From Candidatus Avelusimicrobium intestinale (GTDB taxonomy: Bacteria; Elusimicrobiota; Elusimicrobia; Elusimicrobiales; Elusimicrobiaceae), in NCBI GenBank assembly GCA_902765225.1, contig CACWYV010000005.1, forward strand, positions 43,861 to 107,860: a DNA stretch of 64,000 nt. Direction: 5' to 3'. Below, one piece after another: positions 46,425-60,547 of the stretch (position 1 is its first letter; each line of letters starts with the position of its first letter). The notes under the pieces were generated by a model. The model had not been told where the DNA came from, searched no databases, and saw only the letters and a list, made by a program, of their open reading frames with translations. A program made the position numbers and the translations under genes.

Positions 46425-49400
46425 ATGGTTCGTTGTGTTATCGGTTGGAAACAAATCTTGCAAGCAGGATTCATTGTTTTTTTACTATCGGGTGGTGTAG
46501 CCCAGGCCCAAGATGTACGTGGCTTACTGGTTAAAATGACGGTCAATGTGTTGACTCAAAAAGGGTTTTCTCGGTCGGCAAAACTTGTCAACGCGGTAAA
46601 ACTTTCTTTGGAAAAACTATCCCTGGACCCTTATTTAAGTACTGACGGAATGATTGCGCTTTCGCAGCAGCAGGCGGCGATGTTGGCAACGGATAGAGAA
46701 TTTTTGAACTTACTAAATCCCGCTACGGAGCCGGCCGCGGAGGATCTTTCTCTCCCTGTCCGTACGTCCGTAACGCCGTTAGTTATGCCGCCAACGTTCG
46801 CGGTTCAGGCAGAGGTTCCCGTCCGCAGCCAACATTTGATGCAAACCGTGGATCAGTTGGCGCATAGGACCGTGTCGGGGTATGGTCCGTTCTTTGCAAA
46901 AATAAACCGAAGTATGTTTTCCGACCGATACGGTATGGATTTACACCAGATGATTGCCTTACATGAAACTTTATACCCGCAAGATAAGGGAGTGGTTTCT
47001 CCCCGATCCCTGGAGCCTGTGTTTCGGGTAGAAAAGCGGGCTATGGAGATGGTTTCCAACGGGACTTTGTCCGATAATTGGCAAAAATTATCCGATACCG
47101 ACCGAATGGTTATTTTTGAATCATTTTTACCGACCTATCTTCTCAATCCCGGAGAAGAAGCAAAGGAAATATCCGTACCGCTATTGGCACAGGCGTTGCA
47201 GTACTACCGGGAAATCGTCAGTGGAAAAATGGCTTCCAAAACCCGTGAAGCGGACCGTTTTGCCCAACAAATGAGTGCAGTAACCAACTTAAGTTTGTTG
47301 GGACGGATGGAAGACGTACCGCTTTTATTGGAAGCTGCCCAACAGGATTTTGGCTTATTCAATGAGTGGGCAGATTATTTTCTGGCGCGGGCCGTATTTA
47401 ACTTGGGTACCTACAAGGACGTGCGTACATTGGCCTATATCCGTTTGAAAATGGCCCGGGAGCGGGGGGAATTGATGCCCCCGGTTTGGCAGGGCATTCG
47501 GGAACTGGGCCGTGCGGAAGGACAAACACTACGGGTTCCGCTGGAAGAAATAGAAACAAAAGAAATATCGGTTCCTCCTTTTCTGCAAGAAAATTTGTTG
47601 TTACACCATGCGTTCAATTATTTGTTGGCCAATCCTACGCAGGAAGTAACGCTGGAGTGGAAAGAGTTGCGGGCCGGTTTGGTGGAATCGTTTCAACCCT
47701 GGCTGACGGCAGCAGACGATCTGGCTAATGTAATGGCGGCTACCGTAAAAGCACCGGCAGTGAAACCGGCTGAAAATCCCGCCGAACCTGTTGAACCGTT
47801 CCGGGCGGAGGATCCGGCAGAAGAAAATCCCCCTGTAACGGTGGAGTTTGAACATCAACCGCAACGCGTTTCCCCACCTATCCCCCGGGAACACCCGGTC
47901 AAACCGGCCTATCGGACCTCTGCGCCCAAGGAGGAAAACTCCTCCAAACGAACAAAATCCGTTGAGAAGCGTTCTCCGGTTCGTTCGGAAGTATCGTATA
48001 AGAAACCACCCTTAAGTGATATGGCGGTGCAAGAAGTCATGACGGCTTTAGAAGATTACGTTTGGGAGCATCAGGCCGCTCCGGATTTTAATTCGGGATT
48101 GCGCCACCAGGTAAACCGCTTACGCCCGCAAGCGGCCGCAGGAGACCCGGTATGCCAACAAATTGTTGATTTAATGGATAGCTACAATTCCAATGCCGTG
48201 TTTCGCAATTCGCAGCAGTTGTACAACGAATTGCAACGATATATTCAACGGTATGGCAAGTTGCCCCCTAGAGGAACGCGGCTGCGTAACCGGATCAATA
48301 GAATCTGGCAGAAAAACAAGGCAACCGATACGTGGTCACAATCCATTATTGCGTTAGTTGACGAGTACATTCCCCGCCATTTTATTTCTTCGGCTGAGTT
48401 ATTGACAGATTTAAAGGAGCATCTGGCCAAAACGGGAGGATTGGTCCCCGAAAAGGGAACTCTGTTGCATACCCGGATTAGCAATGCTAGAAGTAAATAT
48501 TCAAATGATCCCAATGTTCAAGAAATAGACCGGTTATTTAAACAATATAACAAACCTGTGGACCCGGCACGTCTGCGCCGGGAGATAGAGCAGTATTTGA
48601 AAGAACATGGGGAATTTCTTGCCGGGAGCCGGCGCCTTCATAGCCAGATTGCCCTCGTGCGTCAATGGAATCCGGAAGATCCTGATCTGCAGGCGATTGA
48701 CGAGCTGGTTAGGCAGGCGAATCAGGCCAAGTATGACAATCTATTGTTCGAGCTAGAGGCATACGTTCAAGAGCACGAAGCGTTGCCTCCCCAACATTCT
48801 AGTTTACGTAGCCGCTTAGATTACATTCGCAAGGCCGGGGATCCTGCTAATGAAACGGTACAACAAATCTTAACTTTGACCCATCAATTTCTTCAAAAAC
48901 CCGGCGTTCAAGTACCCCGACGACGTGCTAATCACACGCCTCAACAAATAGAAGAGGAATTGGAGGCTTATTTGAATAAATACGGGGAAATGCCGGCTCA
49001 CGGTACGCCCCTGCGGAACTCCGTTGATAATTTACTCAATTATCATAAAGGGGATGAACAAGATGCTCACATAAATCATATCCGGGAATTGAAAGAACAG
49101 TATCGTAAAAAAACCAAACATATGGGGAGGACTCCTCAAAGCGTGTTGGAGGAGTTACAAGTGTATGTAGCGGAAAATGAGGGTAAACTACCCCCGCAGA
49201 ATAGCGGTTTGCGCACAATGGCCTATCAGTTTGTTCGGGCCGGTTCTCCCGATGATCCGGCTATTAAGGAACTGGCTGCATTTCTGAAAGAACACGCGCA
49301 ACGGCAGAGACGAACTACGCAAGAAGTGTATGAGGATTTGCGGGACTATGTATTAACCTATGGTAAATTGCCGCCTGCAGGGCATCCGCTTCGTCAATCG

Positions 49401-58993: not shown

Positions 58994-60547
58994 ATGAAAA
59001 AATTCATTTGGTTTCGCGTAGCGGTTTGTTTGGGGTTGTGTATGTTTTGCGTTGCTTCCGTGCAGGCGCAAGTGCCGCATGTGCTTGTGGAACAAACGGT
59101 ACAGCGATTGGTCAATTATGGAGTCAAAAATACGCCGGAGTTGGTACGTGCCGTCACCATTTATTACACCCGCGTAGCACGCACATCCGGGAATTTAAGA
59201 ACAATTGCCGATGATAATTTTATCTTGGAACACACCCATACTTTCATGACCATGCACAAGGAATTTCTTTCTTCCAAAGCCATGCGGCGATTAGAGAAAG
59301 AGTTGAGTAAGCCGCGCCCGGTTTCCAATACCCTTCTTGAGACAAAATTGAAGCAAGCCGCGCAGGAGGCGTCTTCGCCGGTGATGGAAATTTCAGTGCC
59401 GGACCATATGATGACGGGAGAACAACTGATTCGCCGGTTTATGCCGAACTGGCGCGGGCAACTGTTTGGCCGATTTACTGCCCAAGAGCAAGATATCATC
59501 TGGGAAGCCGTTTTAAAAACCGATCGGTGGTTTTTTGAGCGGGGGGAAAACGGTCAAGTGATTTTTAAGGCGGAAGATTGGGATTACGAGGGCCGGTTGG
59601 CTGTGGAGTTGCGTTTGCTTTTACAAGAACAAAATATGATGTTTACTCCGTTGCAATGGGATAGTATTTTGGAAGTTCAAAAGTCTGTAAAGACATCGCT
59701 CCCGTTGGTGTTTACGTTGACCTCCCTGGAGGGGTTTGTAGCGTTGCAAGGGCGACTTCCGGCGCGAAAAACAGAAAACTTGGGTGAATATGATTTGGCT
59801 CATATCCTCTACCACATAAGGGTGAATGCTCCCCAAGACAATGCGCTTGTTAAACAAATCATTGCGTTTGTCAAAGCCAACCGATGGGGTAAAGTCTCGC
59901 AAAAAAGATGGGAAGAATTACTGCAGTTTTGGCAGGATTACGACCGTCTGCCTATGGCCGGTGTTGATAAATCGGAAGAAAATTCCCTGGCACGTGCTAT
60001 TTACCGGTTATGCAATGCAGGCGATCCGGCCGATCCTTTTGTGCAAAAAATCAAAGAGTTCGTGGAAGAACACCGCACACGGCCAGCGCACAGAACGCCA
60101 CAGCAGTGGTTGGAAGAATTAGAGCGGTTTTGGGAGAAGAACCACCGGTTGCCTACGCGAAGGTCCCAAAAACCGGAAGAAAAGTCTTTGATGGAAGCCG
60201 TGAGCAGGATTAAATCTAGTGGCAATCCGGACGATCCTTTCGTGCAAAAGATTAAAGATTTTCTGGAAGAACACCGGACCCGGAAAACACCCCAAGAATG
60301 GTGGTTGGAAATACGGTTATTTTGTGAGGAACATCAGAGAATGCCTTCTTTAACAGCCCAAGATCCGAAGGAACAGGCGTTGGGCAGGGCTGTTAGTAAT
60401 TTGAAATATAATGGCAATCCGGAAGATCCTTTTGTGCAACGAGTACGCGAAATTTCCCGCGACTATGTTACAAAGCGGGGGCGTAAGCCCAAAGTACCGG
60501 CCAGGGTCGCAGAACCTGTTTTCCGGGATAGACCTACTGTCCAGTAA
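58994..60547 (+). CDS. Secreted protein with four HA-like repeats, paralog of 56460..58811
   Basis: Signal ending VQA-Q; shared N-terminal domain (QVPH.LVE.TVQ.LV..GV..TPELV); repeats WEELL.FW..Y.RLP; C-terminal KRGRKPK. Confidence 0.75.
   Translation: MKKFIWFRVAVCLGLCMFCVASVQAQVPHVLVEQTVQRLVNYGVKNTPELVRAVTIYYTRVARTSGNLRTIADDNFILEHTHTFMTMHKEFLSSKAMRRLEKELSKPRPVSNTLLETKLKQAAQEASSPVMEISVPDHMMTGEQLIRRFMPNWRGQLFGRFTAQEQDIIWEAVLKTDRWFFERGENGQVIFKAEDWDYEGRLAVELRLLLQEQNMMFTPLQWDSILEVQKSVKTSLPLVFTLTSLEGFVALQGRLPARKTENLGEYDLAHILYHIRVNAPQDNALVKQIIAFVKANRWGKVSQKRWEELLQFWQDYDRLPMAGVDKSEENSLARAIYRLCNAGDPADPFVQKIKEFVEEHRTRPAHRTPQQWLEELERFWEKNHRLPTRRSQKPEEKSLMEAVSRIKSSGNPDDPFVQKIKDFLEEHRTRKTPQEWWLEIRLFCEEHQRMPSLTAQDPKEQALGRAVSNLKYNGNPEDPFVQRVREISRDYVTKRGRKPKVPARVAEPVFRDRPTVQ

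Follow-up and report, generated by a model that had tools for sequence, protein, structure and literature searches.

The helicase-associated (HA) domain (PF03457) is a three-helix unit of ∼60–65 amino acids (aa) that occurs in tandem arrays and is found in SF2 helicases of bacteria, phages and giant viruses. HA modules have so far been known only as appendages of cytoplasmic helicases and nucleases, with a predicted function. The core pattern of the unit is L..F...HGRLP(8–9 residues)E..L..W/A, and in the actinobacterial examples P0019 and P0023 an NP.P or DP.P turn stands between this core and helix 3. Here, we describe three proteins, termed A, B and C, that share the size, helical make-up, tandem arrangement and core pattern of this unit. 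Their genes lie in a 64,000-nucleotide (nt) stretch of the genome of the uncultured bovine-rumen bacterium Candidatus Avelusimicrobium intestinale (Elusimicrobiaceae; GenBank assembly GCA_902765225.1, contig CACWYV010000005.1, positions 43,861 to 107,860 of the forward strand), referred to below as the window. Unlike the described HA proteins, A–C lack helicase, HNH and methyltransferase domains, begin with a predicted Sec signal peptide and carry novel N-domains. The Trp of HA helix 2 (LG.W) is replaced by Ala or Ile in B and C and by Arg in A. Taking architecture and HA homology together, we conclude with high confidence that A, B and C carry divergent three-helix modules of the HA superfamily, arrayed in tandem and without a helicase.

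Other described systems resemble A–C in part. Transcription activator-like (TAL) effectors are also bacterial proteins with tandem helical repeats, and in both cases the protein possibly meets foreign DNA. TAL repeats are 33–35 aa long and nearly identical, with two hypervariable residues, and the effectors carry type III secretion system (T3SS) signals, defined nuclear localization signals (NLSs) and an activation domain. By contrast, the repeats of A–C are 17–52% identical to one reference repeat and vary over all three helices, and they are combined with a Sec-type signal and a basic tail that is not conserved. The Protein A, GA and FIVAR modules of Gram-positive surface proteins are exported tandem three-helix binding units of ∼55–70 aa; no sequence or structural match between these and A–C was found, the host of A–C is a diderm, and A–C have no LPXTG or cell-wall anchor. 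The HNH_repeat (PF18780), associated with homing endonucleases, is a helical module on nucleic-acid enzymes. It reaches 20.2 bits on B, below its 26-bit cut-off, over helix 1 and the loop region; A–C have no HNH domain.

A repeat hidden Markov model (HMM), built up over three iterations from a seed of seven B repeats, finds eight repeats in A, eight in B and four in C. Per-repeat E-values range from 5e-10 to 5e-30 and the period from 54 to 70 aa, with a typical unit of ∼60–66 aa. The three open reading frames (ORFs) and their repeat counts agree with a first-pass annotation of the window, made by a model from the letters alone, which had proposed three exported proteins built from HA-like repeats. 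No other ORF matches the repeat HMM at E ≤ 1 among six-frame ORFs of ≥60 aa in the window, so the arrays are far beyond chance. Given their low mutual identity and the lack of any DNA-level tandem repeat detected by Tandem Repeats Finder, the repeats are old, diverged duplications, neither chance nor low complexity. Conserved repeat positions are buried hydrophobics and the LP and DP turns. A-type repeats are ∼7 residues shorter than the B/C type and lack the loop before helix 2, and homologues P0013 and P0026 combine short and long repeat types within one protein. The repeat regions are mildly basic (isoelectric point 9.0–9.4, net charge +4 to +11).

Several finer claims of the first-pass annotation fared less well. 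The third helix had been described as strongly variable between repeats, but mean column entropy is similar across helices (helix 1, 1.79 bits; helix 2, 1.84 bits; helix 3, 1.88 bits). The suggested parallel to TAL effectors does not extend to a repeat code because the repeats, only ∼20–50% identical and with no DNA-level tandem repeat, are too divergent for one. The basic tails KGRKR (B) and KRGRKPK (C) are present as described; the special NLS or AT-hook character ascribed to them is not borne out. Both tails match the composition of ordinary post-repeat linkers (EHRT+...), and the C tail is only 19% identical to that of its closest homologue, P0007. An AT-hook GRP core is missing from the tails, and no match to the AT_hook family (PF02178) was found at E ≤ 1.

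Metagenome contigs aligned to the region show that other bovine samples keep the gene order. In these contigs, A and B differ by a few in-frame 3-nt indels, with no convincing change in repeat number. One 652-nt 'skip' at the end of A was discounted, as the support for it is a 30-nt contig overlap.

B and C are paralogues from end to end (36% identity, E = 5e-88 in an all-against-all BLASTP), A has only the repeats in common with them, and the N-domains of A and B have no detectable relationship. The ∼300-aa N-domain of A contains the motifs VPGYG, FESALP, FAQQMSAVTNLGLLG and HHPFNYVL, conserved in its homologues, and has no Pfam relative and no relative among PDB sequences. Between this domain and the repeats, A has a low-complexity spacer (aa 446–535) rich in Pro, Glu, Lys and Ala and reminiscent of the periplasm-spanning spacer of TonB; homologues have a spacer too, the sequence of which is not conserved. 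An NCBIfam scan of A, B and C gave no match. A terminator-like hairpin directly after B points to B and C being transcribed as separate units.

A–C are likely to be exported via Sec, as judged from their N-termini. Each has a basic n-region and a hydrophobic core of 10–15 residues (mean Kyte–Doolittle hydropathy 2.3–2.8); the cores, ILQAGFIVFLLS, FIKLLNVLIVVC and VAVCLGLCMFCV, lead into the c-regions AQA↓Q, AHA↓Q and VQA↓Q. No canonical lipobox was seen by eye in A–C, and no hydrophobic 19-mer follows their signal peptides. A similar N-terminus occurs in ∼20 of the 31 best family representatives, and the remaining representatives are mostly N-terminally truncated records or cytoplasmic HA proteins. 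The signal-peptide call combines a hydropathy rule with inspection and is heuristic; the same rule wrongly flagged two helicases. By this heuristic and by the layout of the proteins, the earlier proposal of a signal peptide and a non-repetitive N-domain holds for each of A, B and C.

The HA identity claimed by the first-pass annotation gains support from profile and structure comparisons and misses the thresholds of Pfam itself. On B, the Pfam HA model reaches 24.4 bits (E = 3.6e-5), short of its gathering cut-off of 28.4; on A and C, it has no match at E ≤ 1. Comparison of single repeats with Pfam HA, the check that the annotation had suggested, found 0/20 matching at E ≤ 10. A profile of all 20 repeats, searched with HMMER against 1.84 billion representative proteins, retrieved 1461 proteins at E ≤ 1e-3. 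The nearest matches are unannotated, and classical HA proteins appear from about rank 17 on. All 10 of the distant matches that were scanned carry Pfam HA above the cut-off, at 32–374 bits; three have ResIII/Helicase_C domains (two of these also Methyltransf_8) and one has HNH. When the window repeats were aligned with 22 HA segments in hhalign, the probability was 98.6% (E = 1.3e-15, 51 columns), with the caveat that the segments had been selected by a profile derived from the window repeats themselves. Individually, 18 of these 22 segments match Pfam HA, the best at 2e-10.

Structure prediction points in the same direction. An AlphaFold2 model of two consecutive repeats of C (aa 314–444), built from a 12-row alignment of in-register repeat pairs, reached a predicted local distance difference test (pLDDT) score of 84.1 and places three helices in the unit, at positions 2–12, 23–38 and 44–56. 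In a Foldseek search of BFVD with this model, ranks 1–6, 8–10 and 12 are helicase-type or 'helicase-associated domain' proteins, mostly from giant viruses, with one phage protein among them. For the top four, the probabilities are 0.99–1.00, the E-values a marginal 0.017–0.034 and the template modelling (TM) scores 0.40–0.47 over 121–138 columns. Against the PDB, the same model had a best E-value of 2.4 and no Myb, SANT or homeodomain protein among 50 matches, in a search method that is weak on 60-aa helical units; the Myb/SANT-like label that the first-pass annotation gave the HA domain is therefore putative here. In a sequence search of the PDB, the matches were a designed repeat protein and, at a marginal E-value of 0.38, the 74-aa 'putative helicase' fragment 2kta, probably the HA nuclear magnetic resonance entry. 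The AlphaFold model of full-length C had low confidence (pLDDT 62.5, predicted TM score 0.29), which makes its Foldseek matches meaningless. The claim that no helicase is attached stands: A, B, C and their nine closest homologues have no helicase, nuclease or methyltransferase domain in Pfam, nor do A–C in NCBIfam, and neither database revealed any other catalytic domain in A–C.

One Pfam family other than HA does respond to B. The pseudomurein-binding (PMB) repeat of PeiW, PeiP and MTH719 is, like the repeats of A–C, an extracytoplasmic, α-helical, tandem binding motif. It comprises 30–35 aa, with Pro conserved at position 28 and positions 5, 20 and 31 taken by hydrophobic or aromatic residues, and binding of PMB domains to cell walls has been shown experimentally (PMC3210951). 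The Pfam family PMBR (PF09373) scores a summed 34.6 bits on B, above the whole-protein cut-off of 24.9; no individual stretch passes, and only model positions 17–29 are matched. Similar cross-matches to the helix-1/LP stretch, sometimes above the whole-protein cut-off, occur in P0033, P0040, P0042, P0043 and P0045; they affect secreted and cytoplasmic proteins alike, cytoplasmic HA helicases included. The likeness is confined to 11–13 residues (for example, EDFVRINGREP versus LQRFYAEKQRLP), and the PMB unit has no equivalents of repeat helices 2 and 3. PeiW of phage psiM100, with the motif FKDMLRRYEDFVRINGREP, has only an aromatic-(8 residues)-Pro stretch in common with the repeats, and its scores against the repeat HMMs lie between −1.1 and 0.7 bits. 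Membership in PMBR was rejected on the shortness of the cross-match, the 60–66-aa period and the PeiW scores. The counterpart of B in the protein database, P0001 (99% identical), bears a precomputed PMBR label.

Relatives of A–C have been found in the same bacterial family. The polynucleotide phosphorylase (PNPase) of the window is 94–96% identical to that of Elusimicrobiaceae metagenome-assembled genomes (MAGs) from cattle, yak, sheep and horse, and the public runs that contain the locus are bovine gut or rumen metagenomes. Across 80 loci compared around pnp, most ORFs that match the repeat HMM are located between hydE and rpsO, one to three in tandem; at one locus (L059) they lie downstream of pnp, and in several MAGs, including human-gut ones, the slot is empty. 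These ORFs are 23–30% identical to A, B or C (26–30% to A), versus 82–84% for HydE and 94–96% for PNPase. Orthologues of B and C were seen in the same species only (L001 and L002, 99%). Among the database homologues, P0016, P0049, P0063 and P0069 are 100% or 99.9% identical to ORFs of MAG loci, and the record of P0018 is named 'hypothetical protein [Elusimicrobiaceae bacterium]'. The close relatives that were checked have no significant Pfam match and no functional name. When B, A or a 99-repeat alignment served as the query of a word-indexed homologue search, only self or near-self matches came back, and a genome-collection scan with a B/C alignment, the two peptide patterns of which were too specific, gave no match. 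A–C belong to a lineage-restricted, unannotated family, known to date from Elusimicrobiaceae of gut and rumen, that varies in copy number, occupies variable slots beside rpsO-pnp and diverges very fast.

Within this family, the repeat arrays diverge faster than the N-domains. A and P0003 are 76% identical in the N-domain and 62% in the repeats, with repeats 5–8 at 42–52%, and P0003 has nine repeat copies versus eight in A. C and P0007, 56% identical overall, are 67% identical in the N-domain and 50% in the repeats. Architectures are modular: the N-domain of a member can be of the A type or the B/C type or be missing, and some members have repeats followed by a C-terminal domain. The exported HA-repeat theme may also reach past the close relatives of this organism, to P0014 (L085, 6001–14598), a 2865-aa protein with a signal peptide, at least eight HA-like repeats and no Pfam domain. 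The P0014 gene adjoins lipopolysaccharide-core glycosyltransferase genes in a diderm.

What might such proteins do? In the explanation that we consider best, Sec would carry A–C across the inner membrane, to act in the periplasm, at the cell surface or outside the cell, where the arrays would work as multivalent binding surfaces. Conserved hydrophobics would build each three-helix unit, and the variable exposed positions, together with the basic linkers, would form the binding surface. The ligand would be a polyanion, nucleic acid first: extracellular DNA or RNA, which would be captured, taken up or serve in adhesion, or else a partner cell's DNA. We hold this overall explanation, exported multivalent HA arrays with a polyanion ligand such as DNA, tentatively, at somewhat short of an even chance. 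Nucleic acid in particular is a possible rather than a probable ligand, at best no likelier than the explanation as a whole. It is ranked first because the homologous cytoplasmic HA modules are fused to helicases, HNH nucleases and methyltransferases, and because the arrays are mildly basic and their linkers basic. The two prepilin-type ORFs in the window fit the presence of type IV pilus or type II secretion system (T2SS) pseudopilin machinery in the genome, which we count in favour of the overall explanation. Other observations weigh against it. Export is judged by sequence heuristics only, the Pfam HA match is sub-threshold on B and absent from A and C, and none of the secreted members examined has a fused nuclease, competence or other nucleic-acid domain. 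We know of no experiment that shows nucleic-acid binding by any HA module, for which this is a database prediction; literature searches on PF03457 and on secreted HA domains returned nothing relevant and no experimental report of such binding. The arrays have no more than a mildly positive net charge, and several repeats taken singly are acidic. Recognition of variable partners, such as proteins, glycans, or host or phage surfaces, suits the very rapid divergence and the changes in copy number better than generic binding to the DNA backbone does. A search for RNA-seq runs gave none, and expression of A–C is putative.

The divergence is at the heart of the closest rival, in which A–C are adhesins or scaffolds that bind proteins or glycans of a partner or of their own envelope and do not bind nucleic acid. 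The partner might be a rumen ciliate, host mucus or epithelium, other microbes or phage, and an arms race or host-specificity pressure would drive the change. Homologues are extremely divergent next to housekeeping neighbours that are 82–96% identical, the distal repeats evolve fastest and the N-domains are shuffled modularly. The genes also cluster with further expanded families of signal-peptide proteins and with an ankyrin protein that has a signal peptide, A has its Pro-rich, TonB-like spacer, and Elusimicrobia are enriched in protozoa-associated fractions of the rumen in a study of rumen ciliates (PMC6217230). Although no known protein- or glycan-binding domain was detected in A–C and the homologous cytoplasmic modules are always on nucleic-acid enzymes, the fast divergence and the neighbouring expanded secreted families make an adhesin or effector almost as likely as a nucleic-acid binder; taken alone, it is still an unlikely answer. 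Much bolder is the idea that exported HA arrays are a new class of secreted modular nucleic-acid binders whose rapidly diversifying repeats set specificity, either as nucleomodulins delivered into rumen ciliates by protist-associated Elusimicrobiaceae or as multivalent extracellular-DNA receptors that feed uptake by a type IV pilus, and we regard it as a long shot. Its nucleomodulin form, proposed by the first-pass annotation, would have the proteins released into a eukaryotic cell such as a rumen ciliate, enter the nucleus by their basic tails or linkers and bind host DNA. HA homology, the basic stretches (KRGR in C fits the minimal K-[KR]-x-[KR] motif), the nearby ankyrin protein and the association of Elusimicrobia with rumen protozoa all suit it, as do the flagellate endosymbionts that related Endomicrobia include (PMC11257099). 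The tails, however, do not differ from ordinary linkers and lack conservation, an AT-hook match was not found, and the repeats diverge too much to form a TAL-like code. A further point against it is that effectors injected by T3SS or type IV secretion systems do not typically have Sec signal peptides. Delivery into a eukaryotic nucleus would be possible if the bacterium lived in or on ciliates. An intracellular lifestyle of this lineage is putative, no injection system was seen in the 64-kb window, and a nucleomodulin role is improbable. That A–C are not exported at all, their N-termini being mis-called starts or membrane anchors of cytoplasmic or inner-membrane HA proteins that act on the cell's own nucleic acids, could be argued from the heuristic nature of the export call and from an alternative TTG start of gene A possible upstream, at 46374. 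Signal-peptide-like N-termini with AxA-type sites nonetheless recur in divergent members that are otherwise unlike at the N-terminus, and no helicase or nuclease partner domain is present, which leaves this reading very improbable. The least credible of all is a pseudomurein-binding adhesin that uses PMB motifs to attach an H2-producing bacterium to Methanobrevibacter walls. It would account for the summed PMBR score of B, draw on the proven wall binding of PMB domains and suit the hydE, hydF and hydG genes of the window, but it founders on the partial cross-match that cytoplasmic HA helicases give as well, on the mismatch in unit length and on the PeiW scores.

The genes surrounding A–C (Table 1) are housekeeping genes, including hydF, hydE, hydG, dxs, plsY, gpsA, cinA, tRNA synthetase genes and ftsK. 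As the window has hydE, hydF and hydG, the organism probably has an [FeFe] hydrogenase.

Table 1. Features of the A–C locus and its surroundings (nucleotide positions in the window)
Feature	Position (nt)	Strand	Protein (aa)	Remarks
Protein A gene	46425–49499	+	1024	From ATG; ORF listing
A signal peptide	46425–46508	+	1–28	
A N-domain	46845–47759	+	∼141–445	Function undefined; conserved in 9–12 homologues
A linker	47760–48029	+	446–535	Pro/Glu/Lys-rich
A repeats	48039–49481	+	539–1019	8, short-type, HA-like
rpsO and pnp	49649–52039	+		Conserved anchor genes; variable secreted-protein slots on both sides
Protein B gene	56460–58811	+	783	ORF listing
B signal peptide	56460–56543	+	1–28	
B N-domain	56544–57221	+	29–254	B/C-type
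B repeats	57222–58784	+	255–775	8, long-type, HA-like
B basic C-terminal stretch		+		TKGRKRITPAL
Terminator-like hairpin	58819–58848	+		Directly after B; 13-bp stem, then T-rich; consensus match only
Protein C gene	58967–60547	+	526	ORF listing
C signal peptide	58967–59068	+	1–34	
C N-domain	59069–59713	+	35–249	
C repeats	59714–60478	+	250–504	4, HA-like
C tail	60479–60544	+	22 aa	Includes KRGRKPK
'Y family'	52136–56156	−		Four tandem signal-peptide paralogues between pnp and B
Ankyrin-repeat protein	43990–44841	+		Ank 174 bits; signal-peptide-like N-terminus
Phage terminase large subunit	41390–42712	−		Terminase_6N, 44.8 bits; orphan among housekeeping genes
Prepilin-type N-termini, two ORFs	5275–5826, 8560–9126	+		…GFTLIE…
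Signal-peptide-like ORFs	2310–3815, 5891–7003, 7009–8424	−		No Pfam match
Signal-peptide-like ORFs	43346–43957, 60812–62020	+		No Pfam match

Further putative secreted proteins surround the arrays. The Y family has no Pfam, NCBIfam or PDB-sequence match, and its motifs are QITNLPG.PLVKL, YRG..L..L..L.NGLE, (I)YFS, LPVL(V)K and DVMVFLEV.G.PGWYK; the spacing of an R…S…E pattern recalls ADP-ribosyltransferases, a likeness that we regard as putative. The last of its paralogues in the window is a two-domain fusion. Elsewhere, the family has ∼13 tandem copies downstream of pnp in L007 (12179–22108) and two to four copies in L003 (12370–16140), L005 and L008. The signal-peptide-like ORFs without a Pfam match include a porin-like 402-aa protein adjoining C and a protein of 203 aa, of which L007 has three paralogues in tandem. 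Besides the Y family and the ankyrin protein, the variable slots hold a family of small signal-peptide proteins. The ankyrin gene is missing at the syntenic position in a contig of GCA_016648615.1, which makes it an insertion in this strain. That contig also has the same terminase gene, next to which lies a GP3_package small-subunit gene. Near the terminase in the window, no further phage genes were seen.

The HA module itself is known, and HA arrays that have a signal peptide, lack an enzyme and evolve fast appear to be undescribed in the literature searched. Such proteins escape annotation or receive a misleading 'pseudomurein-binding repeat' label, a pitfall for anyone who annotates these genomes. 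A–C offer a clean, soluble system in which to learn what the HA module binds. The family marks part of the secretome of the Elusimicrobiaceae, bacteria that may be free-living or associated with protists.

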